The translations under genes were made by a program, and so were the position numbers. A stretch of DNA of 23,259 bases, taken from contig NQJD01000038.1 of NCBI GenBank assembly GCA_004284765.1, positions 1 to 23,259 of the forward strand, written 5' to 3'. Under the pieces are notes generated by a model. It was not told where the DNA came from, did not search any database, and saw only the letters and a list, made by a program, of their open reading frames with translations. The stretch comes from Candidatus Electronema aureum. Its GTDB lineage: Bacteria; Desulfobacterota; Desulfobulbia; Desulfobulbales; Desulfobulbaceae. Shown piece after piece: positions 2,421 to 22,061 of the stretch. The first letter of the stretch is position 1; each line of letters opens with the position of its first letter.

Positions 2421-3683
2421 TTAGAATAATGTCTTGATGCTATCCTGTACCTTAAAATTTATTTCATTTTCAGTTAGTACCTTGTCTCTGCTGAATAAAT
2501 AAAATTCTAAAAATGTATCGGTAAATCAATTTATTTTTATTTTCTTAAAAATAGATTTTCAAATACTTGTTGAATTCAAATGCTGTATAAAATCATATTC
2601 CAAAATCTTTTTTCTATCCTCTGAAAGACTGCTGTACTTTGTTTTGAACAGATCTTTTAAGTATAATTCAAATTTCTTTTTCCTTTCGCTTTCCTCCTGC
2701 TCTATCCTCTCCTTTTCTTTCTCTAACTCCTTTTTTGATTTAAGCAATTCCTTGTTAGGCAAGTTTCAAGCATAATTATTATTTATAGCCTTTATTAAGA
2801 AAGATGAAGGATTATTTTTATTTCTTATCTTTCAATTATCAAGCTCGTTTTTGAAATACTTGTAATTGTTTTGAATAATGTTTATTCAATAGCTCTCTAT
2901 GAGTTCGTCAATTGTCTCGTTTGGAATCCACTGCAACAGTTCAGACATAAACGGACAAGCAATTTTCCCCATCCCCTCATTATTTTTTCATTCAAAAGTT
3001 TTTATGATAAATTCAATAGAATGCACCTTATTTTTATCTTTCATTTCTTTATATTCAAAAAAGAATTTTTTATGCTTAGATTCTAGTTCAACCTTTGCTG
3101 GTTCAAGAACCCTTGCCTTGAAATTTGAAAACAATTTATATTGATCCTCTTCAAGATTTAATAATCATCTTAGGAAATCAAGTGTAAAAATAAAATTATT
3201 CTTTTTATATTTTCTGTAATTTGCAAGCAATAATTGAAAAATCCTTATTGTATATGCACTCCTAAACCTTATAGCAATTGAAAAATCATAAGACAGGAAA
3301 TTATTTTTTAGATTTAACAAATATGGCTTTAGCTTAGGGTCAATTGATAATTCAACATATCATTCATTTTTAAAATATTCAGCAGAAGAAAGCCAGTTTA
3401 TTTGCAAATCCCTTTCAGGAGAAGTGAATGTTATTCACCTTCTTATAAGATTTCCAGTTATTATTTGAACCTCTTTGTAGAATTTCTTGTTTTTAATATC
3501 TAAAATATCTAGTAAATCTTTTATCTTCAGCTTATAAACTTTGAAATCTGTATCAGTTGGCTGGATTAATGATATTAAGCATAACATTATTTTTTGCTCG
3601 TTCAATGATAACTTGTATTGTGCTATAACCAAATCGTTTGACTGTGTTACCTTGTTGTTTATGTCTAATTTATCAAAAAACAT
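2421..3683 (-). CDS. Rep_3/RepB-family replication initiator Rep1 (420 aa under code 25, nine in-frame TGA)
   Basis: The N-terminal sequence SNDLVIAQYKLSLNEQKIMLCLISLI is a Rep_3 signature. I translated the frame by hand from 3683 to TAA at 2421-2423. It has no TAA/TAG but has TGA at 3435-3437, 3360-3362, 3165-3167, 2559-2561, 2526-2528 and four more sites. The read-through text continues the family pattern (G-YVELSIDPKLKPYLLNLKNNFLSYDFSIAIRFRSAYTIRIFQLL). Confidence 0.85.
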
Positions 3684-3815
3684 AGTATGTTTTATTATGT
3701 TCTAATACAACAGAAATTGTATTTGCAATAATATTTAAGTCAAATTTTTAGGTATGAAAATGTTGCTTTTCTTTTTTATATAAAAATATAATGTAACTAA
3801 TACATCGTAATCAAT

Positions 3816-3930
3816 CTGTAATAGTTAGGTAGGATTATGTAATAGTTTCGTAAGGAAAAAGTAATAGGTCGGTAGGATTATGTAATAGCTCTGTAAGGAT
3901 TATGTAATAGTTAGGTAGGATTATGTAATA
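3816..3930. repeat. Iteron array for Rep1
   Basis: GGATTATGTAATA occurs at 3832, 3875, 3897 and 3918 (spacings 43, 22 and 21 bp), with partial GTAATAG copies at 3819 and 3861. The array is ~130 bp upstream of the Rep1 start. Confidence 0.8.
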
Positions 3931-4003
3931 ATTGACTGTAAAAAACGGCTTATTAAAGCTGAAAAATAAGGTCTCTAAACATATAAAACAAGTAAAACAT
4001 TAT

Positions 4004-4035
4004 AAAACAACAACGAAAGAAACCGTTGTTGTTTT
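4004..4035 (+). terminator. Rho-independent terminator-like hairpin
   Basis: 12-bp perfect stem AAAACAACAACG/CGTTGTTGTTTT with an 8-nt loop, ending in T residues followed by ATTTAAAATTTTT. Confidence 0.5.
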
Positions 4036-4103
4036 ATTTAAAATTTTTGATTTCTTGTATTTTTTCATATAATAGAGAATATTTAAAAATTAAAATAATA
4101 AAA

Positions 4104-4358
4104 ATGACTAAAATTCATAACATATCAGTTACACTGCCATCACAATTTGAAAATCTTTTATTAAATTGAGTAAAATTAAAAGATGGTAAAGATAAAGAAA
4201 CTTTTTTAAAGGAAGAACTTGAAAGGATGTTGATTGATAAAATAGTAGAAGAGCTTGAAGATTATAATTCTGCTATAGAGGCTCACCATGATTTTATTTC
4301 TTCTTGATGAGAGACTATTTCCTTTAAAGAAATAGAGGAAAAATATAATCTTAAATAA
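4104..4358 (+). CDS. relB: RelB-type (RHH-like) antitoxin, 84 aa under code 25
   Basis: ATG at 4104, in-frame TGA at 4167-4169 and a TGA-TGA pair at 4305-4310, stop TAA at 4356-4358. The C-terminus DFISS-GG-ETISFKEIEEKYNLK resembles RelB-type tails. It lies 2 nt upstream of relE. Confidence 0.7.
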
Positions 4359-4360
4359 AA

Positions 4361-4615
4361 ATGAAGGTAGAATTTACTAAAAATGCTGAAAAAGATATTA
4401 GCAAGTTTGATAAAAATATTCAGCTATTAATTAGGAAAAATATAAAAGAAAAACTGTTGATAAATCCAGAATATTATTTAGTTCCTTTAGTTTGAAATTT
4501 AACAGGTCAGTATAAATTTCGTGTTTGAACCTATAGAATTATTTGTGAAAAGCATTATGACAGGCTTGTTATTCTGGTTGTTAGAATAAAACACAGAAAA
4601 GATGTTTATAAATAG
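4361..4615 (+). CDS. relE: RelE-family mRNA interferase toxin, 84 aa under code 25
   Basis: MKVEFTKNAEKDISKFDKNIQ...PLV-TGA-NLTGQYKFRV-TGA-TYRIICEKHYDRLVILVVRIKHRKDVYK. The two TGA (4493-4495, 4526-4528) sit where RelE families have the conserved Gly (L-x-G and R-x-G-x-YR). Confidence 0.85.
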
Positions 4616-4625
4616 TTTTTTAAAA

Positions 4626-5708
4626 TCAAACCCCAAAAGTTGCCACAGGTATTTTTTCTAAACAAATTTGACATTTTTTTCTATTCCCAGCAATCCCCCT
4701 TTCTCTAACCTTGCAAATCTCTTTTTTCAATTTTTTATTATGCCAACAAGATAATGATTCGTGATATTCTGGCAAACCTTCCTGTATTACATCCAAATTT
4801 ATTTGCTCAATTTCCTTGTTTATTCCCCCAAGCATATATTTAGGCAATAGCCCTTTTTTTTCGTTCCACCTCGCCCTAATTTCGGGCACTTTTTTTATAA
4901 AATGGTTCTCTTTGTTTAATTCACATATCTTTTTTATGTAACTATCTGCAATATTATTTTTTATACCACAAACTAAAAGCATTTTTGATAGAATATTTTC
5001 TGGATTATCTATCTCAATGATATCATCAGTTGGTTTTCTAAATAGGAAAAATTTTAAAGCAACTACAGAATTCCTGTCAATTTCTTTTTCATAACCAACA
5101 TTTAAATCACTTTTTTCGTTAATTTCCTCAATAGCTGGGTCAAGTATTCTCTCTCTAAAAGAATTGAAACGGCTATATTTTTTATCAGCACCAAGATAAG
5201 CTTTTAAAACTTTTATTTCAACATACCAAGAGCAATTTTTTTTCCACCTATTTAAATTTTCATATAATTTCCAAGTATAAGCCGACTTGAATTGATAAAC
5301 ATCAGCTAATCTATAAATAGAAAAACAATCTTTTAATTCAAGTAAATATGGCTGAATGTCTGGGTTAATTCTAAACTCAAATTCCCCCTTTCCTCTCTTA
5401 TAAATAAAACCACTGAACCAGTTCCAAAAATGCCGTTCATTACCCTTATCAAAAACAAGAGGCTTATTATTTAGCTCTAACATAGCATTATAAATGACGG
5501 TATAGGCAACTATCCTCATCCATAGGAAATATTTTACTAAATCCGTAATCTTAGCCGTGAATGTTCTATTTTCAGGCTTCCTACTGTCGTAGTGAGCCAA
5601 GCAATAGGCAATAAGGCGAAGTTCAGGCAGGTCAAACTTCGCTAACTTAGTCACAAGATCGTTTGATTTCGCAACTATTGAATTATGATCAGGTTTTTTA
5701 TTTTTCAT
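4626..5708 (-). CDS. Rep_3/RepB-family replication initiator Rep2 (360 aa) with no in-frame TGA
   Basis: MKNKKPDHNSIVAKSNDLVTKLAKFDLPELRLIAYCLAHY is a Rep_3 N-terminus. The ATG at 5708 is preferred to the track start at 5789. The gene ends TGA (4626-4628), TTT, TAA (4620-4622). The C-terminal tail carries C-x10-C-x13-C-x2-C. Confidence 0.85.
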   Translation of the reverse strand: MKNKKPDHNSIVAKSNDLVTKLAKFDLPELRLIAYCLAHYDSRKPENRTFTAKITDLVKYFLWMRIVAYTVIYNAMLELNNKPLVFDKGNERHFWNWFSGFIYKRGKGEFEFRINPDIQPYLLELKDCFSIYRLADVYQFKSAYTWKLYENLNRWKKNCSWYVEIKVLKAYLGADKKYSRFNSFRERILDPAIEEINEKSDLNVGYEKEIDRNSVVALKFFLFRKPTDDIIEIDNPENILSKMLLVCGIKNNIADSYIKKICELNKENHFIKKVPEIRARWNEKKGLLPKYMLGGINKEIEQINLDVIQEGLPEYHESLSCWHNKKLKKEICKVRERGIAGNRKKCQICLEKIPVATFGV

Positions 5709-5919
5709 ACCAAAAATATACCATTCTAAAAGAACAATTACAATATCTACTTGTTTTTTATGACCGTAAAAATGTTGTCGGCTCTTCAAGTCATTGCATA
5801 ATTTTTAAAATTTAAAATTGATTGCAAGTAAAAACAGTAATTTGAGCTATTCGACAACAATGTAACCTATTTTTTGTCGTATGTGCTTGTGTCGTACTGC
5901 CACATCGTGGCACTTGTTC

Positions 5920-5981
5920 GCAGTAAATTTGTTGTCGGCTCGCAGTAAATTTGTTGTCGTATAGCAGTAAATTTGTTGTCG
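5920..5981. repeat. Iteron array for Rep2
   Basis: GCAGTAAATTTGTTGTCG occurs three times at 5920, 5942 and 5964 (exact 22-bp period). An inverted half-site CGACAACAA and a palindrome GCCACATCGTGGC lie just upstream. Confidence 0.85.
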
Positions 5982-6065
5982 CGGTGTAATTGATCCCCAA
6001 TGAAATCAAGGGGTTTCACGAGCGGAAAAGTATAAATCTTTTTTATCTATATAAAAAAGAAAAAG

Positions 6066-6170
6066 TAAAAGGTGGCGGAGCCACAAAAAGAGCCTTGCGG
6101 CTCACTGGTGGCAAGCCACCTTTCAAATGCTTGGCTTTCGCCTCGATGGAAGCCCATAAAATGGGCTTTT
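6066..6170 (+). other. Cluster of GC-rich hairpins in a non-coding island, possibly a structured RNA or protein-binding sites
   Basis: Hairpins GTGGC-GGA-GCCAC (6072-6084), GAGCC-TTGC-GGCTC (6090-6103) and GGTGGC-AA-GCCACC (6107-6120). An outer pairing AAAGGTGGC/GCCACCTTT is possible. AAGCCCA-TAAAA-TGGGCTT followed by TT then follows. Confidence 0.3.
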
Positions 6171-6601
6171 AGAAAAACAACCCTCCAACAATTTCCCCTT
6201 TCCCTCCCATGCAAGAGTGTTTTTTCCTAGAAAAAGAAAACAAAAGCACCTTGGGGGCAAAACTTCACCTTTGAAACCCCTCTAAAAAGAGATAGAACCA
6301 CCCTCTAAGCTCTCCAAACAAGAAAAACGATAAACCCTACCTTGAGGTTCTATTTTTACAAATACGGGGCAAAAGCAGTGATTCTTGAAGGGGTGAGATA
6401 AAACCACCCTTTGACGGGAAGGAGGGGGGCGGAGAGGCAACTATGAACCATGCTTGAGTGAGGTGCTACCTACACCCCCCAAGAAAGGGGGTAGAATGGT
6501 CTTAAAATCTCTGAAAAAACAAAAAACGACCCAACCTACAGGGGGAGTCGTTCTTTTAACTACGGGGCAAATACACCCCTTCTTGAGGGTGTGTACTATT
6601 T

Positions 6602-6910
6602 TCAGGCTTCTTTCACCAAAAAGTCTTCGATGTTCCCGCCCTTCTCCACCAGTTCTGCAACCCAAACTGGACGGCGACCACGACCAGACCAAGTGTTAGA
6701 GTCCTTCTTGTACTTAATCTTGATTTTTTTCGGTTCCTTCTTGAGGCTCAAAATCTCATCCAGAGACAACCCCGCCTTCTCCGCCAACTCTTGAAACTGC
6801 TTTTTCAGCTCCGCTTTCTTCTCCTTCTGCTTTTGAAGAATTAATTCTTCAATCTCTTTTTGCAAAATAACCAATTCTTCAATTGATTTTTTTTCAAAGT
6901 CTTTGTTCAC
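6602..6910 (-). CDS. hns: H-NS-family nucleoid-associated protein
   Basis: The C-terminal TWSGRGRRPVW matches the H-NS DNA-binding loop motif, and the N-terminus is coiled-coil-like. GTG start at 6910 with AAGGAGA 8 nt upstream. The gene ends TGA (6602-6604), AAA, TAG (6596-6598). Confidence 0.8.
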   Translation of the reverse strand: MNKDFEKKSIEELVILQKEIEELILQKQKEKKAELKKQFQELAEKAGLSLDEILSLKKEPKKIKIKYKKDSNTWSGRGRRPVWVAELVEKGGNIEDFLVKEA

Positions 6911-6912
6911 GG

Positions 6913-7803
6913 CTATTCTCCTTGTTTGTGAGAGTTATTTTTTATACCCCTGATGAAATCATTTAAATCTTTGAAACCAGCATAATAACAATTCTTAGAA
7001 ATGCCTTTCAATCTCAATCAAGTCTCTTTTAAAATTCTATTTTTCGTATTTTCTCCGGCTTTGTCGTTATCAAGATAAAAATGCAGTACCGAAGGATTTA
7101 ATTTTTGAATTTTCTCTATTGCTTTTTCTGTTAAACAAACCGAATTTAAAATGATAATTTGCTCGTTTAAAAACTGCTTTTTAGTATATGTTAGATAGGA
7201 AAGAAAATCAATAAATCATTCAAAAATATAGATTTCTCTGTTCCCCTCTTTTCCTTTGATTGTTGTTATATCTTTCGGGGAGAAACAACCCTTGAAAAGG
7301 TTGTTTCTTATTTCGTATCATCCAGAATCATTTTTGAAACCAATTGCAAAATAATCTTTACTTCCTGCTTTGTAGTAAATTTCAACTAAATAATTTTTAG
7401 CTATAGAAATATTTATTTTTCTTTCCTGTAAATAATTAATAAGAGGAAAATATGACAATGGTTTAATTTCTTTTATTAAAATTTTACTTTTTGGCTCAAT
7501 TTCTTTTTTATCTTTTGTTAATACTTGCCTAAAACCAGTGCTGAAAATACTTTGAAGTTTTTTCAATGCTCCTGAAATATCTGTTTGAAACTGTAAAATT
7601 ACAAGGTCAATGATTGTGCCACCTATACCTTCCCCGTGATCATACCAAACATTCAAAGTTTTATTCACCTTAAAAGAGGCAGTTTTTTCTTTTCTTAAAG
7701 GTGAAAAATACCAAAGTTCATTTTTCTGCACTATTTTTGGAGAAAATCAGAGGAATAATAAATAATCCTCAATAGGGATTTGTTTCGCTTGTTTGAAGTC
7801 CAT
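6913..7803 (-). CDS. Toprim-domain DNA primase of the Bacteroides mobilizable-element type, 296 aa under code 25
   Basis: ATG at 7803, TGA at 7747-7749, 7318-7320, 7216-7218 and 7018-7020, stop TAG at 6913-6915. The translation reads MDFKQAKQIPIEDYLLFL-G-FSPK...ELWYFSPLRKEKTASFKVNKTLNVWYDHGEGIGGTIIDL, then ...REIYIFE-G-FIDFLSYL (Toprim EG motif) and YLDNDKAGE. Confidence 0.8.
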
Positions 7804-7857
7804 TTTTTTTATGAAAATAATCTTTATTTTAACTAAAAAATAGGTTATGCAAATGGA

Positions 7858-8070
7858 TTATTTTTTTCTTTTCACCAGTAACTTTTTTCTTCTATCTTCA
7901 CGGGAAATTCAAGAGAAGAAATTTTGCAAAGTTTTGATACTTCGACGACGAGTTAATAATAATGTGATGCAATTGTAATTTTTGTTTTTCTTGTAAATAT
8001 AGAACTCATCAACACAAGAAAATATTCATACTCTCAAACTTCTCTTTATAATCTGCCGTCCGGTTTCCAT
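7858..8070 (-). CDS. Small basic hypothetical protein (70 aa under code 25)
   Basis: ATG at 8070, two in-frame TGA, stop TAA at 7858-7860. It has 71 codons without TAA/TAG in very AT-rich DNA. No family recognised. Confidence 0.35.
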
Positions 8071-8129
8071 ATTGACTAATAAAAGCCAAAAATTGCATAT
8101 CACATGCTTTATTATTTAATTTATAGTTT

Positions 8130-8486
8130 ATGAAAGCAGAAACAGTTATCTTGTGCGATTTGTTACAATGTGGTTTTTTAGATGTAGAATATTTGTCTGA
8201 TATTTGCGAAAGGAATGAAATAGATATTGATACTCAAGAAATAAAGGAAAGTTTTTGAGAATTGCATATGAATGTTTTAATATATGATGCTTTAAGGCAA
8301 ATAGCGGATAAGTTCTTAGACGAAAATTTATATGAAATATGAGAAATTTTAGAGGTGTCAGATATGAAAGAATACATTGCTGAAAATGAGCTTTATGAAA
8401 TCTATACCAATTATTTAGACAGTCATCTATGGTTTAAAGATCAAGAAATTCAAAATTTATTTGAAAATTCAAAGTACCGGAGATAA
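8130..8486 (+). CDS. Strongly acidic hypothetical protein (118 aa under code 25)
   Basis: ATG at 8130, TGA at 8256-8258 and one more, stop TAA at 8484-8486 followed by a terminator hairpin. By my count it has about 28 Asp/Glu against about 10 Lys/Arg. Confidence 0.6.
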
Positions 8487-8499
8487 TCCGGTGCTTTTT
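8474..8499 (+). terminator. Rho-independent terminator
   Basis: Stem ACCGGA/TCCGGT (8476-8481/8487-8492) extended by G-C and T-G pairs, loop GATAA, then TTTTT. Confidence 0.6.
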
Positions 8500-8595
8500 C
8501 TTTTTTGAAAAACTATTAACCAATCTTAGCATATTTTTGGGAGAAGCAAAATATATTTTGCAAATTTCCCTCGGCTTAGTACACTGCTTTACATC

Positions 8596-8700
8596 CTCGG
8601 CTTTGCCGAGCCGATGGGGGGGGGCAAGATTGAAAGTTTCACCTAAACTTTCATCTTGCAAGGCGGGGACACCCCCCTTGACCCCCCGTTTTGCCGTTGG
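8596..8700. promoter_or_regulatory. Candidate oriT
   Basis: It lies immediately upstream of mobC-relaxase. Hairpin CTCGGC-TTT-GCCGAG (8596-8610), a G9 run, a 16-bp imperfect inverted repeat at 8624-8639/8644-8659, and tandem GAC(A)CCCCCC units. The nick site was not identified. Confidence 0.45.
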
Positions 8701-8728
8701 CAATACACAATCTTTTTAAAAAATAACA

Positions 8729-9103
8729 ATGAAAGACAGAAAAGAATACCAAAAGGAATACCTTAAAAAATGGAGAAAAGAAAATAAGGACATTCATATA
8801 TATTTTACACCAGAAGAATACAAATTTTTTGAGGAACTATCAAAAAAGTATGAAGTAAAAACAAGCTCACTTATAAAAACAATGGCAATTTCTCAGGCAA
8901 ACAAAACTCTTTGCTTGCCTAAAGAAATGCAAGAAAAACTAAACGAGTTCGTTTTTCTCATAAGAAACATAGCAAACAATGTGAACCAAATAGCCAGACA
9001 CTCCAACACCATTAAAACCTTAACCGATGAACACGGTTTATTATCCTACCTCAAACAGCTTGAAGAAGCCGTTAAAGAATATGTGAAAAAAGAAAACAAA
9101 TGA
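8729..9103 (+). CDS. mobC: MobC-type relaxosome accessory protein
   Basis: IRNIANNVNQIARHSN matches the MobC signature (NxNQiAr..N). The gene ends TGA (9101-9103), TTA, TAA (9107-9109). There is an ATGA overlap with the relaxase start. Confidence 0.85.
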   Translation: MKDRKEYQKEYLKKWRKENKDIHIYFTPEEYKFFEELSKKYEVKTSSLIKTMAISQANKTLCLPKEMQEKLNEFVFLIRNIANNVNQIARHSNTIKTLTDEHGLLSYLKQLEEAVKEYVKKENK

Positions 9104-10023
9104 TTATAAAATCAATGTCCAGAAAAGAGCCGAGCTTTGCCCAGCTCTCAAATTATATTTTCAAAGGAGCAGACAACAAATACACCTACACAAGAAACCT
9201 TTATGAAAGGGATACTGAAAGCATAACAAGAGAATTTGAAAAAAACTTTAAGCACCTAAAAAGGCAAAAAAACTCAAATGCAATTTACCACGAAATAATA
9301 TCTATCTCAAAAGCAAGCATTGATACAGAAAAACAAAAAGAAAAACTTTTGGAAATAGCTGGTGAATATGCGGAAATAAGGGCGAAAAATTGCCTTGTTT
9401 TCGGCTCCCTTCACGAAGCAGGCAACAACTTTCATTTTCATTTAATGATTAGTTCAAATGGGATCGAACAGAACAGAAATCACTACCTTTCAAAAAAACA
9501 ATTTGACGAAATAAAGAAGGGCTTAGAAAGGTATGTTTTGGAGAAATACCCTGAACTAGACCAAAAACGGGTTATGAACCAAGAAAGGAAAATAGAAGCC
9601 GTATCGCAAAAAGAATTTGAACTCAAAAAAAGAACTGGTGAGATAACAAAAAAAGAATCTATCCAATATCGATTGACTCAAATATTTAATAGATCATCCA
9701 CTAAAGAAATTTTTTTTACTAACCTTGAAAAAGATAAAATTCAAATTTATATCAGAGGAAACACCGTAGGTTTTATAGATTTGTCGGACGACAAGCAGAG
9801 GAAATATAGATTAAAAAAATTAGGATTATCCGAGGAATTTAATAAAATGAGTGAGGTGCTTGCTCGTGAAGTTCCTCACTGTCAGGAACCAGCAAGCAAG
9901 ACCTTTTCAAGGCAGGAAAAACAGGAACAGAAAAAAGAGGAAGCCAGACCGACAAAAGAACAAGAGGCTTTAGATGAACTGAAAAAAATAAGAGATAGTA
10001 AAATTAAAATCAAAAAGATGTGA
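9100..10023 (+). CDS. Relaxase/mobilization nuclease. It is 307 aa under the standard code and would extend to 10263 (387 aa) under code 25.
   Basis: An N-terminal Tyr region (LSNYIFKG) and a histidine triad HEAGNNFHFHLMIS. The TGA at 10021-10023 is in frame with the ORF at 10069-10263, with no intervening TAA/TAG. Confidence 0.85.
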   Translation: MIIKSMSRKEPSFAQLSNYIFKGADNKYTYTRNLYERDTESITREFEKNFKHLKRQKNSNAIYHEIISISKASIDTEKQKEKLLEIAGEYAEIRAKNCLVFGSLHEAGNNFHFHLMISSNGIEQNRNHYLSKKQFDEIKKGLERYVLEKYPELDQKRVMNQERKIEAVSQKEFELKKRTGEITKKESIQYRLTQIFNRSSTKEIFFTNLEKDKIQIYIRGNTVGFIDLSDDKQRKYRLKKLGLSEEFNKMSEVLAREVPHCQEPASKTFSRQEKQEQKKEEARPTKEQEALDELKKIRDSKIKIKKM

Positions 10024-10068
10024 GAATTTGAAAATACAGTAAAAGCCACTAAAAAGGAGGTAGGAAAA

Positions 10069-10263
10069 GTGTTTGCTGGGATTAAAAGAATTTTAGGAGT
10101 AGATAGGTTGCTTGAAGCAGGAAAAAAAAATGAAAAACCTGAATGGGTCAGGGAAGACGGCACTATTGATAAAGAACAACAGGAGGAAGTCTTGAAGGAA
10201 TTAGAAGCCCAACGAGCTTTGAAAATGGGGAAAAATAAATCGGGATACAAAAAAAGCCTTTAG
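10069..10263 (+). CDS. Either a separate 64-aa ORF (GTG start) or the C-terminal extension of the relaxase
   Basis: Same frame as the relaxase. AAGGAGG lies about 10 nt upstream of the GTG at 10069. Stop TAG at 10261-10263 is embedded in an inverted repeat. Confidence 0.4.
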   Translation: MFAGIKRILGVDRLLEAGKKNEKPEWVREDGTIDKEQQEEVLKELEAQRALKMGKNKSGYKKSL

Positions 10264-10325
10264 TGTCTAAAGGCTTAAATATTTAAGAGCTTGAGAGCTT
10301 AAAGCCTTTAGTGCTTAAAAGTCTC
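10254..10325. repeat. Second cluster of the TTTAGTG/CTTAAAGC palindrome family
   Basis: Inverted repeat at 10254-10262/10268-10276, palindrome CTTAAATATTTAAG at 10274-10287, a GAGCTT doublet, and CTTAAAGCCTTTAGTGCTTAAAAG. The units are shared with 775-940. Confidence 0.5.
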
Positions 10326-10340
10326 AACTAACTAAAAAAT

Positions 10341-12464: not shown

Positions 12465-12553
12465 TTTTTTCTTCTTGACAGCACTCTTTCAATTGTGTTA
12501 AAGCCTATTTTTATCTTTTCAATTTTCAGTTTGCCTGTTTTTGGAGAATTCTT

Positions 12554-15500: not shown

Positions 15501-18500
15501 ACCCCGAAGGCAGTGTGAAGCATGTTGAATATGATGCCCTCGGTCGCCCGCTTGCCGTGACGAAAAACTATGTTGCGGGGGCAGGCGACAGCTCGGACAC
15601 CAATATTACAACCCAGTTCTCCTACGATCTTTTAGGCAACAGGCTTTCCGTTACCGACCCTGAAGGCTACCAGTTTTCCGCTGAATATGACCTGCAAAGC
15701 CGTCTCGTAAAACGGCGGGATGCGGAAAATTACGAATGGGAATACAGCTATGACCCAATGGGAAACCTCCTTGCCGAGCTGAACCCCAGAGGCTACAGCA
15801 CCGCCTACACCTATACCCCAGCAAACCGCCTTCAGTCCGTTACCAACCCAGAACAGCACACCAAAACCCTTGTTTGGAATGCCAACGGCAAGCTGGTTTC
15901 AATCAAAGACCCGCTCGGAACAGTCACAGCCTACGGCTATGACTCCCTTGACCGCAAGACTGCCAAAATCATGAACTACAAGCCGTCTTTCGCCCCAGAC
16001 AGCCAGACCAATGTAACCACCAAGTTTGCTTACGATCTAGCAGGGAATCTTCGGTATATCACCAATCCCCTGAACTACAAGGCGGAAATTCGGTACGATG
16101 CCGCTCAACGAAAAACGGAGCAAATCAATTTTGAGGGCGGCAGAACCAAGTTTGCTTACGACAAGGTCGGCAATCTTCTCAAGGTCACGGATGCCAAGGG
16201 TAATTCCACCAGCTATACAGTAGATGAGCTTGACCGCCTTACAGCCGTCACCAATGCCGAGAACGAGACCACAGGCTATGCCTATGACCTCGTAGGCAAC
16301 CGCACCCAGCTTGTGGAGCCAGACGGCACCGTAACCCTGTATGAATTTGACGGGGTGTACCGCCTGAATAAGGTGCATGAGAACTACCGCCCAGACCAAG
16401 GAACGGGCAACGATGTGAATGCCGTCACCGCCTACGGCTATGACAGGCGAGGACTGCTCACCAGCACAGTGAACCCCAACGGGGCGGAGACCAAGTTTGA
16501 GCACAACGGGGTTGAAAAGCTGGTGAAGGAGGTTGATCCGCTCGGCAAGGTCTGGGAATATGCCTATGACGGCAACAGAAACCGCACCAGCCGAAAGGAT
16601 GCCAAAGGCGATCTGACCGAGTACGAGTTCTACCCAGACGACATGCTGGAGCAGATCAGCTATGCCGACGGCAGCAGTGTGTCCTACGAATACGACCCGA
16701 ACAACAACCGCACAGGGATGACCGACAAGCTCGGCACGACCTCGTGGAGCTTTGACCCGCTGAACCGAACCACCCAGCAGAAAGACCCCTTTGAACGGAT
16801 TTTGCAGTACCGCTACGATGCCGATTCCAACAGGATCGGCATGACCTACCCAGACGGCAACAAGGTTGCCTACCAGTACAGCCCGAACAGCTGGCTGAAA
16901 AAAATGACCGACCCTAAAGGGCAGGTCATCACCTACAGCCGTGATCTGGTCGGCAACACCACCAAAATAACCAACCCCAACAAGACCGAAACCACGGTCG
17001 CTTATGACAAGGTGTACCGCACCTTGCAGAGGGTCAACCGCCAGACCACCAACGGCGGCAAGATCAACTCCGCCTACTGGCACAGTTACAACAAGCTGGG
17101 CAACATCACCAAAACTATGAACCAGTACGGCTGGCGGAAGCCGTCCGTCGTGCAGGAAACCTACAGCTACGACGGTTTGCATCGCCTTGCAGGGTTCAGC
17201 CTCTATCCTCTCCAGAACAACGGCGGCAGAGTTACGGAAACTTGGAACTATGACCCCGCAGGCAACCGTCTGAGCTGGAAAACCAACGACGACCTTCAGA
17301 GCAACACCCCCTTTGATGCCTTCAGCAGAACCTACGAATACAACGAAGCCAGCCAGATGCTTGCCGTGGCACACGATGCAGGCAAGAAAAGCAAGAACTT
17401 CGCCTACGAGTACAGCTACGACGAGAACGGCAATAGAATCAACCGACAGCTTGAGGATGCCAACGGCCCGCAATACGGGGCAGATTACAGCTATGACCCC
17501 GAAAACCGCCTTGTGGAAGTGCAGGACTACCAGCTCACAGGCAAAAACGGAAAGAACCGAATAGACCGAGCCGTAACCTCGCTGGAGTATGACGGTGGCG
17601 GTCGTCGGTTGGTTCAACACTATGACCCCAAGAACGGCGGAAATGGAGTTGATAAACGGGACGAGTATGTGTTTGACGGGCTTGACCCAGTTGCCGAGTA
17701 CGACAAGCTGAACGGGCAGCGGACGGACTACTACAGGGGCGAGGGTGGGGACATTGCCTTAATGCACCAGTATAAGGGTGGCACTCAAGGGCAGATGTAC
17801 TGGTATCACTACAACCAAAAGAAAGATGTTGTAGGATTAACGAAACAAAACGGCAATTCACACCACAACTACCGTTATGATGTGTACGGAGCTGTTTTGC
17901 CTGAAAACGGCAATTTCACTGATCCGCACAACCACTACACTTTGACGGGCAAAGAGTTTGATGAGAACACGGGCTTAGTGTGGTTTGGGGCAAGGCATTA
18001 TGAGCCTGAGACTGGGGTGTGGATGGGGCAGGATAATTTTAGAGGAATTTTAGATATACCTATGACATTGCATAGGTATCAATATAATTATAACAATACA
18101 GTTAATTATTATGATCCTGACGGGAAAAATCCATTGATTGTTATTGGTGCTATTATTGCTGGTGTATTTCTAAATGATATAAATATTGCTAAATCTCTTG
18201 ATAAAGGACAAAAGATTGATGGTGAATCTGTTAATTTGATAGAGGAAGTATTAGATGAAATACCAATTTATAAAGATATTCCAGATGGAGCTAAATTTGC
18301 TGCTGAAATTCTTTATACAAAAGGTAGTAATTTAAAAAATCCTAAAAAAACAAAGTCTATATATAAATCTTCAAAAAAGATATGGAAAAAATATGAGCAA
18401 TATTGTATTGACAAGGGAAATGAAATTAAGAAGGAGATTAAGTCTATATGGAACAGTACAAAGAAAAAAACATCTGTAGAGAGTGCATTTAATCATTGGA

Positions 18501-18772
18501 AAAAACATGGTGATGAATTTCCAGAATTTAATAACGCAAAAGAATATGTTGAGGGGGCAAAAAAATTTATTTCTGATCCTCCAAAAGGAACTATTTCAGT
18601 AGATATGAAAAATGGAGGTAAAATGTTTTACAATCAAGAAACTAATACTTTTGCTATTTCAAATAGTGAAGGTGTTCCTGAAACGATGTTTAAACCTGAT
18701 GTTTCTGATCATGGTTTAAACGATAATATGGCATATTGGCTTCAGGAAGTAGCTAAGTGGGGAGTTAAGTGA
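12554..18772 (+). CDS. Rhs/YD-repeat polymorphic toxin with an N-terminal signal peptide (WapA-like architecture)
   Basis: GGAGA ribosome-binding site. Hydrophobic leader ending VALAC. Tandem Ig-like N-terminal domains. Rhs plug-like GHPVTTYTGNF...FITRAYNS. Dozens of YxYDxxGN repeats. Core end GKEFDENTGLVWFGARHYEPETGVWMGQD...YYDPDGKNPL. Stop is TGA at 18770-18772. Confidence 0.95.
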   Translation: MSKQPASFRSLWSFLPVSILFLLTIYEGVALACTPKIVWVADNNIPNVIEAGTAVTFKWEVVNKSSCNATDLRVAFYSTSLESPTADFGGDNNPSFSLKPWEKGIIEAKMPIAPKEIEKYFELKFDIVKADGTPLVPLALGRLGAEFTIIPLTEPPPTQSCTANLVWEEPKYDAKKVAPSVPVLFVWTVTNISTDCDAINYSPVFFYAEPSSQTANYNGTSHPHFDAKRGKTVQIQANVLLTPAEEGKYKAVFNIYDHNGDALPVSGEKEPLYAEFEVSKSIPPPKEPCDSVLAPVVQSVDLVQLGNDGKVLVTANVTNSSGELTVTLDLNGKTYTMSKLNSGAYGATGEGNKAGKNDYTVTAGNGCKFHGLDFVDGVLSSYNMGTCCQDADMSCKNQRKCGRSQFAASKGHPVTTYTGNFAETLTDGAVAGIGDADLFITRAYNSAAALADAASVYRHTEAGREKVAGPPQYFGTGWSSNLDSFLLAMDYAPLYEGVQIRFPDGHTQNFEKSGSSYKSSTPDNFDELTKEGNNFVLKRKSSLETWSFGSDGKLLQTSDQNGNKVAYTYGGGCLEKISSGSRAVTFTCDAKGHITKAQLPENIVISYEYNDDLLTAMTDGRGNKTQYTYDENKQLTKISTPLGTPSVQMSYDDRYRVSSQTVGESELYAFAYQGEDAAESTTITDSYGNATVQKHDEKGRQVEITHPDGTTEEFKHDDHNSRTYYKDPAGGEYSYTYDDKGNMLALDGPLGLHKEWSYSQSNLVTATTEKVDDTKNRKFTFEYDAKGNLSKFCLPLQNCGTVTYTAAGLPEKLTDLRGNISVNAYNAEGDLVSVTDPEGAVTKFSHDGLGRTVGKTKPLGNAYRYAYDQNSNLTAVDGPLGFHMGYSYDANNNLAESTDPNGGKKRYTYTASGSMSSEQNQLGFVTSFAYGLMNERTGMTDAEGRQWSYAYDSMLRVKEVSGPLGHRQGFVYNALGMITDATDPEGSVKHVEYDALGRPLAVTKNYVAGAGDSSDTNITTQFSYDLLGNRLSVTDPEGYQFSAEYDLQSRLVKRRDAENYEWEYSYDPMGNLLAELNPRGYSTAYTYTPANRLQSVTNPEQHTKTLVWNANGKLVSIKDPLGTVTAYGYDSLDRKTAKIMNYKPSFAPDSQTNVTTKFAYDLAGNLRYITNPLNYKAEIRYDAAQRKTEQINFEGGRTKFAYDKVGNLLKVTDAKGNSTSYTVDELDRLTAVTNAENETTGYAYDLVGNRTQLVEPDGTVTLYEFDGVYRLNKVHENYRPDQGTGNDVNAVTAYGYDRRGLLTSTVNPNGAETKFEHNGVEKLVKEVDPLGKVWEYAYDGNRNRTSRKDAKGDLTEYEFYPDDMLEQISYADGSSVSYEYDPNNNRTGMTDKLGTTSWSFDPLNRTTQQKDPFERILQYRYDADSNRIGMTYPDGNKVAYQYSPNSWLKKMTDPKGQVITYSRDLVGNTTKITNPNKTETTVAYDKVYRTLQRVNRQTTNGGKINSAYWHSYNKLGNITKTMNQYGWRKPSVVQETYSYDGLHRLAGFSLYPLQNNGGRVTETWNYDPAGNRLSWKTNDDLQSNTPFDAFSRTYEYNEASQMLAVAHDAGKKSKNFAYEYSYDENGNRINRQLEDANGPQYGADYSYDPENRLVEVQDYQLTGKNGKNRIDRAVTSLEYDGGGRRLVQHYDPKNGGNGVDKRDEYVFDGLDPVAEYDKLNGQRTDYYRGEGGDIALMHQYKGGTQGQMYWYHYNQKKDVVGLTKQNGNSHHNYRYDVYGAVLPENGNFTDPHNHYTLTGKEFDENTGLVWFGARHYEPETGVWMGQDNFRGILDIPMTLHRYQYNYNNTVNYYDPDGKNPLIVIGAIIAGVFLNDINIAKSLDKGQKIDGESVNLIEEVLDEIPIYKDIPDGAKFAAEILYTKGSNLKNPKKTKSIYKSSKKIWKKYEQYCIDKGNEIKKEIKSIWNSTKKKTSVESAFNHWKKHGDEFPEFNNAKEYVEGAKKFISDPPKGTISVDMKNGGKMFYNQETNTFAISNSEGVPETMFKPDVSDHGLNDNMAYWLQEVAKWGVK
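18125..18769 (+). other. Variable C-terminal toxin tip of the Rhs protein (about 215 aa after the DPDG motif)
   Basis: The sequence turns abruptly AT-rich from about 18040. There is a hydrophobic stretch LIVIGAIIAGVFL and a Lys-rich linker. The final domain reads AFNHWKKHGDEFPEF...AKKFI...GGKMFYNQETNTFAISNSEGVPETMFKP, which from memory is reminiscent of colicin D/BECR-type RNase tips. This is unverified. Confidence 0.6.
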
Positions 18773-18829
18773 TTTGACTTTCAATATAATTTGATAGAAT
18801 GGAAATATTTATTTTGTAATAAATATAAT

Positions 18830-19141
18830 ATGAATAACAACAGATTGACTACAGCATGGTACTGTAGGGTTTGTGGCTTGAATCAAAATTATATTCATTG
18901 GGATGTTGATAAACAACTTCCACCTACTTATGATTTTTGTGATTGTTGTAATGCTCAGTTTGGTTATAATGATTCAAATAATATAGCTATATCTATTTAT
19001 AGAAAAAGATGGATTGATTCTGGAGCTGAATGGAGCAATAGAACCAGAAGAATGGAAGAATGGAATCTTAAGGAACAATTAAAGAATATTCCTGATGAAT
19101 ATAGAGATAATTTTGTATTATCTTTGATTTCTGAGAAATAA
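18830..19141 (+). CDS. Putative cognate immunity protein, Cys-rich (zinc-ribbon-like)
   Basis: It lies immediately downstream of the toxin tip and has the same AT-rich composition. C-x2-C (CRVC) and C-x-C-C (CDCC) pairs sit 23 residues apart. The ATG at 18830 is preferred to the TTG at 18791. Stop is TAA. Confidence 0.55.
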   Translation: MNNNRLTTAWYCRVCGLNQNYIHWDVDKQLPPTYDFCDCCNAQFGYNDSNNIAISIYRKRWIDSGAEWSNRTRRMEEWNLKEQLKNIPDEYRDNFVLSLISEK

Positions 19142-19187
19142 TTATTTAACCTTCGTGATAATTACGATTATTCGCCGCCTGCGAATG

Positions 19188-19610
19188 TCAAAAAGGTTTC
19201 CACGGATTGATTATCACCTGATGACTCGGTGCAAAATCATCCTCATTTCGTGTTACAACCACCATTTGATGAGCTGATGCCGTAGCAGCAATATATCCGT
19301 CAATAACAGACATCCGTTGTCCTGCTTCCTCTGCCATAGCTTGCAGGATTCCCCATGCTTCAGCTATAGCACGATCAACAGGGATAATCCGATCACTGTA
19401 ATCGGCTAAAAGCATTTCAAACCAGCCCGATAGCCGAGTTTTCTTCTTTGAGTCAGGCATTCTTGCAATGCCTCGTTTCACCTCGCCAATCGTGAGAGCA
19501 CTTAAAAAAAGATGCTCGGAAGGAACCGATGCGAGCCAGTTCATTACTGCCTTATTTGGAACTGGTCTCACCAATTCAGAAATTATGCAGGTATCGAGCA
19601 GATAATTCAT
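19188..19610 (-). CDS. vapC: VapC PIN-domain toxin
   Basis: MNYLLDTCIISELVRP...TRNEDDF shows the PIN acidic residues in the usual order. ATGA overlap with the upstream antitoxin. Stop is TGA. Confidence 0.9.
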   Translation of the reverse strand: MNYLLDTCIISELVRPVPNKAVMNWLASVPSEHLFLSALTIGEVKRGIARMPDSKKKTRLSGWFEMLLADYSDRIIPVDRAIAEAWGILQAMAEEAGQRMSVIDGYIAATASAHQMVVVTRNEDDFAPSHQVIINPWKPF

Positions 19611-19861
19611 AGATCAAGCTCCCGTGGATATTCCTGTTGCCGTTGAAACGGATCGTCAGCATCAAGTTTGGGACAGCTTAACAGAAATTCTGTAAATGAT
19701 TGTTTATGCGATGTTAATTTTTCATAATCACGGACTGAAAGCAAAACTGCCGTAGCAACACCCCGCCGTAGAACATATTGCGGTCCTTGTGTCAGAGCTT
19801 CATTGACGAACTGACTGAATTTATTCTTTGCATCCTGAAGTTTCCAGTTTGTTTTGATCAT
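19607..19861 (-). CDS. Phd/YefM-family antitoxin paired with VapC
   Basis: MIKTNWKLQDAKNKFSQFVNEALTQGPQYVLRRGVATAVLLSVRDYEKL. The start at 19861 is preferred to the long track ORF. Stop is TGA. Confidence 0.85.
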   Translation of the reverse strand: MIKTNWKLQDAKNKFSQFVNEALTQGPQYVLRRGVATAVLLSVRDYEKLTSHKQSFTEFLLSCPKLDADDPFQRQQEYPRELDL

Positions 19862-19996
19862 GCTTTTTCTCCAGTTAAGGGGGAATTCATCTAGGTAGGC
19901 TAGCTGAAAAAGGTATCGCCTGTCAAGTTCCAAATGGGGAACACGATACAAAGCCACCCCTTGCCTTTTGTGTTGCACCTGTGCTACACTGCTGTT

Positions 19997-20248
19997 ATGA
20001 AGACCGCAACCATACACACACGAATAGAGCCTGAAATTAAAAATCAGGCGGAACAAATCCTAAGTCGGCTTGGACTCACCCACACCGAGGCAATAGGGAT
20101 ATTTTACCGTCAAATATGCCTTGGCAACGGGCTTCCTTTCCCTGTGGAGATACCCAACAAATGCACCGCCGAGACACTGGCAAAAAGCAGTCGTGGCGAG
20201 GAAGTGAAGACTTTTGCCAGCCTTGAAGAGATGTTTGAGACTTGGTAG
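19997..20248 (+). CDS. dinJ: DinJ/RelB-family antitoxin
   Basis: MKTATIHTRIEPEIKNQAEQILSRLGLTHTEAIGIFYRQI is a typical DinJ N-terminus. Stop TAG lies 2 nt before the toxin ATG. Confidence 0.85.
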   Translation: MKTATIHTRIEPEIKNQAEQILSRLGLTHTEAIGIFYRQICLGNGLPFPVEIPNKCTAETLAKSSRGEEVKTFASLEEMFETW

Positions 20249-20250
20249 GC

Positions 20251-20520
20251 ATGAAAAAAGTATCTCAAACCCGCCAGTTTCTAAGGGATGTTAAAAAGGC
20301 TGCAAAACGGGGGAAGGACTTAAACAAACTCAAGCGGATTGTTTCACTCCTTGCAAAAGGCGAACCGCTTGAAGCCAGTTGCAGAGATCACAGTCTAACG
20401 GGGCAATGGAAGCCGTCCCGTGACTGCCATATTGAACCCGATTGGATTCTTATTTATACAGCAGATGAAGAAAATTTGCTTTTAGAGAGAACAGGCACCC
20501 ACAGTGATCTTTTCAGGTGA
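20251..20520 (+). CDS. yafQ: YafQ-family mRNA interferase toxin
   Basis: RDHSLTGQWKPSRDCHIEPDWILIYTADEENLLLERTGTHSDLF matches the YafQ signature. Stop is TGA. Confidence 0.85.
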   Translation: MKKVSQTRQFLRDVKKAAKRGKDLNKLKRIVSLLAKGEPLEASCRDHSLTGQWKPSRDCHIEPDWILIYTADEENLLLERTGTHSDLFR

Positions 20521-20781
20521 GATTTGAAAAAATTATTATTCTGATTTTCTCAAGCAGTCATTCTTTCTTCTCTTCTTTTCAAAGTAGCAAAGCAAGTCGT
20601 CCTGCCGTCACTGGTTCAGATCGTCTCCCCCACCTCCTCCAAGCCGTCCTTTTCAGCCCTCCAACCACTCCGTCAAAGCCTCTTTTGTTTCTATGCCCCG
20701 TAAAAGGCTCATACAAGCCTGTCACAGCCTTTTTTTGTGGTGAGCAGTACCTTTCCATGCCCAGTGGTGAAAATCACTTAG

Positions 20782-20804
20782 AAGCCCCATAGCGGGCTTT
20801 TTTT
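20782..20804 (+). terminator. Rho-independent terminator
   Basis: Stem AAGCCC/GGGCTT with a 6-nt loop, followed by a T7 run. Confidence 0.6.
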
Positions 20805-20810
20805 GAGGGA

Positions 20811-20836
20811 CAAGGAAAACAGGACTGTTTTCCTTG
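20811..20836 (-). other. Near-perfect hairpin downstream of Rep3
   Basis: CAAGGAAAACAG-GA-CTGTTTTCCTTG has 12-nt complementary arms. No clear U-run on the minus strand. Confidence 0.4.
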
Positions 20837-20896
20837 CCTACCGCCCCGCCTGTTCCCGTCCGCCGAACGGCTGACAAAGCACCCCCTGCAAGGTGA

Positions 20897-21841
20897 TCAA
20901 CCTTGCTCTGCCTGTTGTTTCTTCTGCTCCTGTTCCCGCTCGTCCAAAAACTTGATGTATGCCCCTTGAACCATTAAAGCACGACCGTACTCAAGATAAA
21001 ATTTATAAATAAATTCATCATGTACTTTTGCATGTTCTAAAAATTCATTAAATATTTTCCTATCTAATTCCGCTGTTTCAACCTCCTCATAAGATGATTG
21101 ATTTGTTGTTTCTGGTTTAGTCTTAACAATTGATTTATCTGTATTGTTGTCTAACTCAATAATTATAAATTTTATAACCGCAATTTTCCTACCTTCCCTT
21201 TCTGTTTCAAGTTCAAAAGAAATATCAGATTTATATTTCCCTTTCTCGTTTTTCTCATCAAACTCTTTCTTTGCCTGATTTAAAATCCATTTCTTGAAAT
21301 CTTTATATTCTTTATACTGATTTTCCTTTAAACCAAGAATTTCCCTTAATTCATCAACTCTAAATTTTCTCCAACCAATATTTTTATACTGGCAAAGAAG
21401 CTGATAAATTCGTACAGAATAGATACTTTGAAATTGTGTAAGTCGGTTAAGATTTATAATTGTAAAATGAGACTTTAATTGTAATAAATATGGTTTCATA
21501 AAAGGGTCAAACCTAAAATAGACTATCTTGTTTTTATAGTCGTGATCACAAAAAGAAACCCAATGTGTAATTTTAAGTCTTTTTTCTTCTTTTATATAAA
21601 TAATCCTTTGCATTAAACGAACTGTAATTTTTTTCATTTGATGATGGATATTTTCAATATCCATGTTCATAAGATATGACAATTCTTTAAAAGATATTTC
21701 GTATGTATGAAAATCTTTATCGTCTTTTTGTATCTTTGATACCATAGCTAAAATAAGCCGTTGCTCACTTGTTGTTAAAGTGTATTTTGATTCAATTAAC
21801 TTGTTTGATTGAACAACAAACTTAGGAGCATTTGCCGTCAT
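20897..21841 (-). CDS. Rep_3/RepB-family replication initiator Rep3 (314 aa, standard code)
   Basis: VVQSNKLIESKYTLTTSEQRLILAMVSKI and FRFDPFMKPYLLQLKSHFTIINLNRLTQFQSIYSVRIYQLL are Rep_3 patterns. Stop is TGA at 20897-20899, and no TAA/TAG follows in at least the next ~40 in-frame codons I translated. Confidence 0.9.
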   Translation of the reverse strand: MTANAPKFVVQSNKLIESKYTLTTSEQRLILAMVSKIQKDDKDFHTYEISFKELSYLMNMDIENIHHQMKKITVRLMQRIIYIKEEKRLKITHWVSFCDHDYKNKIVYFRFDPFMKPYLLQLKSHFTIINLNRLTQFQSIYSVRIYQLLCQYKNIGWRKFRVDELREILGLKENQYKEYKDFKKWILNQAKKEFDEKNEKGKYKSDISFELETEREGRKIAVIKFIIIELDNNTDKSIVKTKPETTNQSSYEEVETAELDRKIFNEFLEHAKVHDEFIYKFYLEYGRALMVQGAYIKFLDEREQEQKKQQAEQG

Positions 21842-21933
21842 TGTAACACCTTTAGCTTTTTTTGTATGAAAAATACTGAAACGGCTTTTATCTTACATCG
21901 GTGGAGAATGCTTGGCAAGTCTCCTCTCTATTT

Positions 21934-22061
21934 TCATGTTTTTTTCTCCACCTTTTTAAAAAGTGGAGATAGTTTAGCTATTCTCCACCTATGCTGTTTC
22001 ATGTTTTTTTCTCCACCGTATCCATGTTTTTTTCTCCACCTTTCATGTTTTTTTCTCCACC
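21934..22061. repeat. Iteron array for Rep3
   Basis: (T/C)CATGTTTTTTTCTCCACC at 21934, 21999, 22022 and 22043. Half-sites TTCTCCACC at 21981 and inverted GGTGGAGAA near 21900 and 21963. Confidence 0.85.

Follow-up and report, generated by a model that had tools for sequence, protein, structure and literature searches.

Why should one small plasmid carry three replication initiators of the same family? The question is raised by contig NQJD01000038.1, a stretch of 23,259 nt binned as Candidatus Electronema aureum, a freshwater cable bacterium, and analyzed here over its entire length (the window). The original prediction had recognized three Rep_3 initiators (Rep1, Rep2, and Rep3), each with a private and unrelated iteron array, and had noted that the Rep genes differ in codon regime, which was taken to suggest either a cointegrate history or an extension of host range. 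The difference in codon regime was correctly seen and proved to be the key clue: Rep1 depends on TGA being read as glycine, whereas Rep2 and Rep3 are free of internal TGA. Here, we establish three distinct Rep/iteron cassettes, a real dependence of part of the molecule on TGA as glycine (genetic code 25), and selection on both sets of genes, i.e., those that require this reading (set A) and those that avoid in-frame TGA (set B). Taken singly, each replicon is of the ordinary Rep_3/iteron kind, and the novelty lies in the division of all three, and of the whole plasmid family, between two readings of TGA. We found no prior description of a plasmid family split in this way in the searchable literature.

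All three initiators match the Pfam domains Rep3_N (WH1) and Rep3_C (WH2), with E-values of 1e-28 to 1e-36, and Rep1 passes the Pfam thresholds only when TGA is translated. Their pairwise identities range from 27 to 33%. The three arrays (ori1, ori2, and ori3; Table 1) are mutually unrelated in sequence and have a period of 21–22 bp, so the repeats first described are real, at helical spacing, and were accurately placed. Specifically, the ori1 copies start at 3832, 3854 (degenerate), 3875, 3897, and 3918, while ori2 consists of perfect 18-mers at 5920, 5942, and 5964 with an exact 22-bp period (0.01 expected by chance), and the ori3 copies are found at 21935/41, 21978 (degenerate), 22006, 22029, and 22050. 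An inverted partial iteron between the array and the rep start was seen for ori2 and ori3, with the inverted GGTGGAGA copies of ori3 lying nearer to the rep3 start than the CATGTTTTTTTCTCCACC array; a search for such an element between the ori1 array and rep1 found none. There are no DnaA boxes near the three origins, and the sole TTWTNCACA match in the window, at 9082, is below chance expectation. A DnaA box in the origin is not universal among Rep_3/iteron replicons.

In this respect, the window resembles the Rep_3 theta replicons of the pPS10 RepA, F RepE, R6K pi, and pSC101 RepA class, with WH1 and WH2 in each initiator, tandem 18–22 bp iterons spaced at two helical turns beside each rep gene, and operator-like inverted partial iterons at two of the origins; it departs from them in having origins without DnaA boxes and one initiator that is untranslatable in the standard code. 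Nor is the number of replicons as unusual as had been assumed, because PLSDB records show two to four Rep_3 places per plasmid. Like multi-replicon plasmids (IncF with FIA/FIB/FII, or Acinetobacter and lactococcal plasmids with several Rep_3 genes), the window combines compatible replicons of the same family whose modules reassort among relatives; unlike in those plasmids, its replicons are divided by genetic code.

The evidence for this division begins with Rep1. No open reading frame (ORF) spans positions 2421–3683 in the bacterial code, and all nine stops in the Rep1 frame are TGA, each at a glycine position; Rep1 is not an ORF in the standard code and is intact only with TGA read as glycine. 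The residue was identified from an alignment of seven family Rep1 genes and 18 standard-code outgroup Reps. At the TGA columns, glycine is the commonest outgroup residue and tryptophan is essentially absent, and one column is TGA in 7/7 family genes and glycine in 17/18 outgroup Reps. The reassignment is therefore TGA to glycine, and reading TGA as tryptophan (code 4) was rejected on the same columns. Selenocysteine was rejected as well, given that there are 4–9 TGAs per gene and that they occupy glycine rather than cysteine positions. A TGA also takes the classic glycine position in the RV-TGA-xYR motif of the RelE toxin and in the Toprim motif of the primase (FE-TGA-FIDFLS). Read with glycine, the peptides spanning TGA sites include ...ILIFEGFIDFLSFLTDK in the primase and ...NEGYVELSIDPK in Rep1.

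Approximately 8 of 23 genes (roughly 35–40%) are recoded, with one to nine in-frame TGAs each, and over window positions 1–8510 ORF coverage rises from 0.34 in the standard code to 0.69 under code 25. Set A consists of Rep1, the primase, RelBE, ParE, and three small conserved ORFs. Set B, whose genes would function in a standard-code cell, comprises Rep2, Rep3, ParA, H-NS, MobC, the relaxase, the T4 coupling protein (T4CP), a J-domain protein, an RHS protein, and two toxin-antitoxin (TA) pairs. The two sets differ sharply in codon usage: set A has 24 TGA vs 30 GGN codons, and set B has 0 TGA vs 285 GGN (Fisher 4e-22). They are interleaved along the molecule in the order B-A-A-A-A-B-B-A-A-B. 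That TGA never acts as a terminator, as expected under code 25, is true of set A (0/6 genes) but not of the whole element (10/14 set B genes end at TGA). Set B termini of the form TGA-N-TAA/TAG are present in Rep2, H-NS, and MobC and lacking in Rep3, RHS, YafQ, and the relaxase; readthrough of the Rep3 stop, which has no nearby back-up, would add 149 codons. ARAGORN detected no tRNA on the window or on 10 related loci, an Rfam scan of the window also gave none, and no suppressor tRNA, release factor, or aminoacyl-tRNA synthetase genes encoded by the plasmid were found.

Next, we examined whether both gene sets have been under selection in relatives, which come from unrelated datasets and comprise four Logan contigs (L006, L007, L008, and L015), a 23.1-kb JGI contig (L009), an ENA contig (L010), and a contig of Ca. 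Electrothrix sp. GM3_4 (L011), whose genome was assembled from single filaments after washing (PMC10580974). At least five divergent relatives (L006–L011) have both the backbone and an identical split into recoded and non-recoded genes. Each family Rep1 ortholog has six to nine TGAs, in comparison with three in RelE and two to four in the primase. When read with code 25, dN/dS is 0.08 for Rep1 (dS 0.9), 0.16 for the primase, and 0.31 for RelE, and neither TAA/TAG stops nor frameshifts occur in six to seven Rep1 and four primase orthologs. This purifying selection under code 25 indicates that set A consists of translated genes and not of relics. Rep2, in turn, has no internal TGA across eight orthologs with ~120 GGN codons, whereas the neighboring set A genes use TGA for 20–75% of their glycines. 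Since synonymous sites are saturated between family members (set B dS >1), a delay following import cannot explain why the AT-rich set B genes have no TGA at all; this requires that TGA be selected against, i.e., translation with TGA as a stop. The termini are consistent with this: in Rep2, ParA, MobC, H-NS, and YafQ, TGA alternates with TAA/TAG among orthologs, and every Rep2 ortholog that ends at TGA has a TAA/TAG 2–6 codons downstream.

The origins look functional: in the relatives, the iteron arrays found upstream of Rep1 and Rep2 have stayed in place with a 21–22 bp period, while their sequence co-varies with the Rep protein (for ori2, in seven relatives). Specifically, a Rep1 that is 86% identical goes with the same iteron, TATTACATAATCC, and a Rep1 that is 62% identical with an unrelated one, GGGGTGAAAGAGATAC; the Rep2 iterons have a common CGACAACA half and a variable other half. 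The identities of Rep1 and Rep2 disagree between relatives (86/72% vs L009 and 63/79% vs L006), which indicates that replicon modules reassort. Across the contigs compared, Rep1 and Rep2 appear as a conserved pair and Rep3 as a variable cassette that some family members lack, e.g., L009, while L015 has a 72%-identical Rep3 at the same locus. A simple recent cointegrate, one of the two explanations proposed earlier, does not fit these data, because five or more divergent relatives have kept the Rep1–Rep2 pair with recoded and non-recoded genes interleaved.

The window represents a mobilizable circular plasmid of ~23.3 kb, plus the unassembled interior of an insertion sequence (IS) element, from a family associated with Desulfobulbales (cable bacteria and Desulfotalea); the contig is this circle with the assembly break inside the IS element, owing to which it was assembled as a linear contig. 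Position 128 is joined directly to 23134 in three relatives (L009, L010, and L011), and the closure follows from the fact that the DUF7706 region directly follows parA in relatives. In the window, the 253 nt between 23134 and 128 contain perfect 13-bp inverted repeats, CTCACCTTACGCA, flanked by an 8-bp target duplication, TTATCCAA, together with a transposase N-terminus (91 to 2, leftward) that continues past the contig edge. The element was inserted between parA and the DUF7706 region, replacing the last two ParA codons with 13 IS-derived codons. Relatives of the 30-aa transposase fragment are DDE_5/DDE_Tnp_1 transposases, and a search with it for a host of the IS matched only truncated transposases. 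A Logan contig from SRR14559659, built by an independent assembler, is 100% identical to window positions 2301–23162, and one from a second sample (SRR14559660) is 100% identical to 7470–23162; these contigs end 28 nt into the left end of the IS, where a repeat boundary would be expected to stop them. All three replicons therefore reside on one molecule, as the original prediction had assumed. A near-identity DNA search of PLSDB with the window gave no match. In the paper on the closed E. aureum GS chromosome, four contigs of the earlier metagenome-assembled genome (MAG) remained unaligned and were called minor contamination, and only circular contigs of >500 kb were binned (PMC10030654), so that a 23-kb plasmid would have been missed.

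The closest parallel outside the family is the finished 14.7-kb plasmid of Desulfotalea psychrophila LSv54 (NC_006140, L069; 28.6% GC), an axenic host with the standard code. The two share the same backbone (ParA, 42% identity; MobC, 48%; relaxase, 52%; T4CP, 38%; and the J-domain protein), are AT-rich, and have a Rep_3 gene with 21-bp iterons. The primase of NC_006140 (6844–7737) is one frame of 297 codons with five in-frame TGAs, two of them at exactly the glycine positions used in the window, and an unannotated DUF2958 ORF (8634–8945) likewise has five in-frame TGAs at glycine positions. These are its two recognized recoded genes, all other recognizable genes being free of TGA, and RefSeq annotates the primase as two fragments. 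Unlike the window, NC_006140 has a single, TGA-free Rep and no orthologs of Rep1, Rep2, or Rep3 closer than 28%. On a plasmid from Sulfitobacter, the genes of this backbone (ParA, primase, MobC, relaxase, T4CP, and J-domain protein) are all written in the standard code, and the primase has 25 GGN and 0 TGA codons. The contrast between recoded Desulfotalea and standard-code Sulfitobacter genes indicates that recoding characterizes the AT-rich branch in Desulfobulbales.

Nearly all named relatives of Rep2 and Rep3 come from cable bacteria and other Desulfobulbales, plus Thiomargarita; those of Rep3 occur in Ca. Electrothrix, Desulfopila, Desulfobulbus, and Thiomargarita. A genome scan with Rep2 found matches only in cable-bacteria genomes, and Ca. 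Electronema sp. PJ encodes distant Rep2 relatives on contigs that have 50% GC and use the standard code. In comparison, relatives of the Rep1 clade are distant (≤44%) and standard-code, and the named ones belong to Firmicutes and Desulfobacterota. A metagenome scan for further members of the Rep1 clade returned only distant standard-code Rep_3 genes (≤44% identity) and one unrelated recoded gene (L059). L059, a 21%-GC JGI contig, has a distant Rep_3 gene (887–1990) with three in-frame TGAs, which suggests that further recoded Rep_3 plasmids exist outside the window's family.

How one molecule came to keep both gene sets is a matter of interpretation. We tentatively favor a mobilizable plasmid lineage that has been selected under both codes, alternating between Desulfobulbales with the standard code and a second host, in which UGA is read as glycine. 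This second host would use code 25 and be of the Gracilibacteria/Absconditabacteria type, and the plasmid would move between hosts probably by mobilization with its own relaxase and T4CP. In the standard-code host, replication would proceed from ori2 and ori3 via Rep2 and Rep3, with Rep1, the primase, and the recoded toxins left untranslated. Rep1/ori1, the primase, and the additional TA modules would become active in the code-25 host, where the set B proteins would still work, with short C-terminal extensions limited by nearby TAA/TAG stops. Of the two earlier explanations, host-range extension would thus survive in a stronger form, with replicons separated by genetic code and not merely by host factors. 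The standard-code host is suggested by binning with Ca. Electronema aureum and by relatives in washed single-filament Electrothrix genomes, as well as by the Rep2 relatives of Ca. Electronema sp. PJ and by the backbone held in common with the axenic Desulfotalea plasmid. The more specific proposal, a shuttle between Desulfobulbales including cable bacteria and an unrecognized UGA-as-glycine partner in which the code switches replicon, primase, and TA modules according to host, is possible, and we advance it with reserve. Several observations weigh against such alternation. The literature shows no code-25 organism in these samples or with cable bacteria, and the Desulfotalea plasmid comes from a pure culture, i.e., its recoded genes reside in a cell without a partner. 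The named relatives of Rep1 belong to standard-code Firmicutes and Desulfobacterota and not to the candidate phyla radiation (CPR). Rep3, RHS, and YafQ would gain 61–149 codons on TGA readthrough, which means that they lack adaptation to a code-25 host. For transfer, the plasmid encodes just a relaxase and a coupling protein, with no mating-pair apparatus, and the host assignment itself is based on binning and physical co-isolation, not on linkage.

An alternative is a single standard-code host among the Desulfobulbales in which set A stays silent until UGA-to-glycine decoding is supplied in trans, e.g., by a suppressor tRNA-Gly(UCA) encoded by a phage or another element, co-resident or infecting, or by the host itself. 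In that case, Rep1, the primase, and the recoded toxins would constitute a module that can be induced for establishment, runaway replication, or abortive infection, much as in partly recoded phages of standard-code hosts, in which 26–71% of genes are recoded with TGA as tryptophan or TAG as glutamine (Borges et al.). Consistent with this idea are the recoded genes on the axenic Desulfotalea plasmid and in washed single-filament cable-bacteria genomes, the set B stops at TGA, and the proportion of recoded genes, which is within the range of those phages and well under the ~90% for elements of code-25 hosts. However, neither the window nor the 10 related loci carry a tRNA, no UGA-to-glycine suppressor is known in standard-code bacteria or phages, and nine TGAs in one gene would demand efficient, dedicated decoding; on balance, we consider decoding in trans somewhat unlikely. 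Under either this explanation or the favored shuttle between two codes, Rep1/ori1 is a replicon switched by genetic code.

The opposite simplification, a code-25 host only, would make the plasmid the misbinned property of a Gracilibacteria/Absconditabacteria-like organism living with cable bacteria, with Rep2, Rep3, RHS, and the mobilization genes imported from a Desulfobulbales neighbor and not yet having acquired TGA. The AT-rich backbone (27–35% GC), the purifying selection on set A, the gain in ORF coverage under code 25, and the short-read contigs that failed to align to the closed E. aureum chromosome would all suit it. Yet the AT-rich, saturated set B genes still have 0/~120 (Rep2) and 0/285 (window) TGA, TGA alternates with TAA/TAG at conserved termini, and Rep3, RHS, and YafQ lack back-up stops; moreover, the same pattern is present in the finished plasmid of an axenic standard-code isolate, with relatives in washed single-filament assemblies, all of which leaves this explanation distinctly unlikely. 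That the window is a cable-bacterium plasmid on which only Rep2 and Rep3 function, with Rep1, the primase, and the recoded TA genes as dead cargo, decaying remnants of a captured code-25 plasmid, is very improbable. The standard-code reading does truncate the recoded genes after 26–137 codons, and the Desulfotalea primase is annotated as fragments, but decay is contradicted by the selection analysis (dN/dS of 0.08–0.3 at saturated dS), by Rep1 and primase orthologs without TAA/TAG stops or frameshifts, and by ori1 iterons that are conserved and co-vary with Rep1. Least credible of all is an assembly chimera between a code-25 and a standard-code contig: GC content does vary from 24% to 55% along the window, but Logan contigs from two runs are 100% identical to it, the gene sets interleave, and contigs of other studies (from JGI, ENA, NCBI, and Logan), as well as a finished plasmid, show the same mosaic.

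Like the code-neutral phages (2023, mBio; PMC10746230), set B avoids in-frame TGA, and some of its genes (Rep2, H-NS, and MobC, but not Rep3, RHS, YafQ, or the relaxase) have a second, different stop near the terminus. Those phages are neutral throughout, whereas the plasmid carries a conserved code-25-only block (eight genes with in-frame TGA); in addition, the element here is a plasmid, with Desulfobulbales on the standard-code side. Like the partly recoded phages (Borges et al. 2021/22; Lak, crAss-like), it unites both kinds of gene in one element, with an intermediate recoded fraction. Unlike them, it uses TGA as glycine and has no tRNA, while many of those phages have suppressor tRNAs, and its recoded genes serve replication, priming, and TA functions rather than lysis or structure.

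A differing genetic code is usually viewed as a barrier to horizontal gene transfer, but this natural plasmid family keeps two selected gene sets, one with TGA as glycine and one with TGA as a stop, and the functions for replication and maintenance are complete on both sides. If the plasmid is a shuttle, plasmids would cross the code boundary with multiple replicons as the means, and the family would represent a natural two-code shuttle vector along with a hidden code-25 (CPR-type) partner physically associated with cable bacteria. If decoding occurs in trans, standard-code Desulfobulbales would hold an unknown UGA-as-glycine decoding exploited by plasmids for regulation. At present, such contigs are either dismissed as contamination (as in the Ca. 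E. aureum MAG) or given annotations as fragments of pseudogenes (as in the D. psychrophila plasmid in RefSeq). Since D. psychrophila can be cultured, the question is directly testable.

Table 1. Coordinates of features in the 23,259-nt window
Feature	Position	Strand	Remarks
IS element right end (IS4/IS701-like)	1–127	-	13-bp terminal inverted repeat CTCACCTTACGCA at 115–127
ParA-type partition ATPase	88–714	-	KGGQGKTT; no in-frame TGA; last 13 codons and TGA stop IS-derived
Target-site duplication TTATCCAA, right copy	128–135		Left copy at 23127–23134
Short direct and inverted repeat cluster	760–940		Upstream of parA; conserved in L006
Two small conserved ORFs with in-frame TGA	967–1442	-	orf113, 967–1294; orf51, 1287–1442
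ParE-like toxin and RHH antitoxin	1701–2288	-	Toxin 1701–1997, one in-frame TGA; antitoxin 2001–2288, no TGA
Rep1, Rep_3 initiator	2421–3683	-	420 codons; nine in-frame TGA; TAA stop
ori1	3812–3931	+	Five GGATTATGTAATAG iterons at 21–22 bp spacing; upstream of rep1
RelB-like antitoxin and RelE/ParE-family toxin	4104–4615	+	Antitoxin 4104–4358, three TGA; toxin 4361–4615, two TGA
Rep2, Rep_3 initiator	4626–5708	-	360 aa; no internal TGA; terminus TGA TTT TAA
ori2	5852–5981	+	Inverted half-iteron 5852–5860; three perfect GCAGTAAATTTGTTGTCG iterons 5920–5981
H-NS-family protein	6602–6910	-	TWSGRGRRPVW; no internal TGA; terminus TGA AAA TAG
CHC2/Toprim primase	6913–7803	-	296 codons; four in-frame TGA
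orf118, conserved	8130–8486	+	Two in-frame TGA; followed by terminator-like hairpin
Mobilization module	8729–11807	+	MobC, 8729–9103; MOB relaxase, 9100–10023; T4CP, 10341–11807
J-domain protein	11808–12464	+	
RHS/YD-repeat toxin	12554–18772	+	2072 aa; 49–55% GC; 0 TGA vs 177 GGN; TGA stop
Putative immunity ORF	18830–19141	+	
Standard-code PIN and Phd	19188–19861	-	PIN, 19188–19610; Phd, 19607–19861
Standard-code RelB and YafQ	19997–20520	+	RelB, 19997–20248; YafQ, 20251–20520
Rep3 cassette extent	20521–22601		~2.1 kb; relative to L009, which lacks the cassette
Rep3, Rep_3 initiator	20897–21841	-	314 aa; no internal TGA; TGA stop
ori3	21900–22061	+	Inverted GGTGGAGA at 21900 and 21962; four to five CATGTTTTTTTCTCCACC iterons
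DUF7706-homologous region, probably degenerate	22625–23134	-	
IS element left end	23135–23259		Terminal inverted repeat 23135–23147

The genes of the mobilization module have no internal TGA and give Pfam-type matches to MobC/NikA-like proteins, Relaxase (PF03432), and T4SS-DNA_transf, with no mating-pair formation genes found; by this gene content, the plasmid belongs to the MOB-relaxase mobilizable class (relaxase, accessory protein, and coupling protein). L009 shares the TGA at which the relaxase stops, and a conserved in-frame extension of 80–83 codons follows it, to 10263. This extension (10021–10263) is itself under purifying selection (dN/dS of 0.18, 51% amino acid identity), and at least its first 13 codons contain no start codon; the relaxase may accordingly be long when read in code 25 and short when read in code 11. 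Between the extension and the T4CP gene lies a cluster of short repeats (10253–10318) built on AGCACTAAA/TTTAGTGCT and AAGGCTTAAAG, which also make up the cluster upstream of parA; both clusters are conserved in L006 (4954–5233). They may be a centromere or a site bound by a regulator, and the one upstream of parA may be a centromere or an operator.

Three GC-richer stretches (40–48%) hold no convincing ORF: 5985–6605 by ori2, 8540–8730 upstream of mobC, and 22066–22625 by ori3. They show no mutual similarity and no Rfam match. The stretch upstream of mobC is probably the origin of transfer (oriT) region, and the one by ori2 has no counterpart in L009. The RHS gene differs in composition from the ~30% GC of the plasmid, and code 25 would fuse it in frame with the downstream putative immunity ORF. 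Related RHS genes are present in L009 and L011, with a different C-terminal region (DUF4329) in the latter. The block containing PIN-Phd and RelB-YafQ (19156–20516) is 95% identical to L009 positions 15302–16662, whereas the other parts of the backbone are 67–83% identical, which points to recent exchange between family members. The DUF7706 region has several TAA/TAG codons in the homologous frame, while L008 has an intact ORF of 262 aa with an internal duplication. Lastly, orf113 (113 aa) is intact in L006, L007, and L010, but the window copy is split by a frameshift at an A/T run, reflecting either a pseudogene or a sequencing error.

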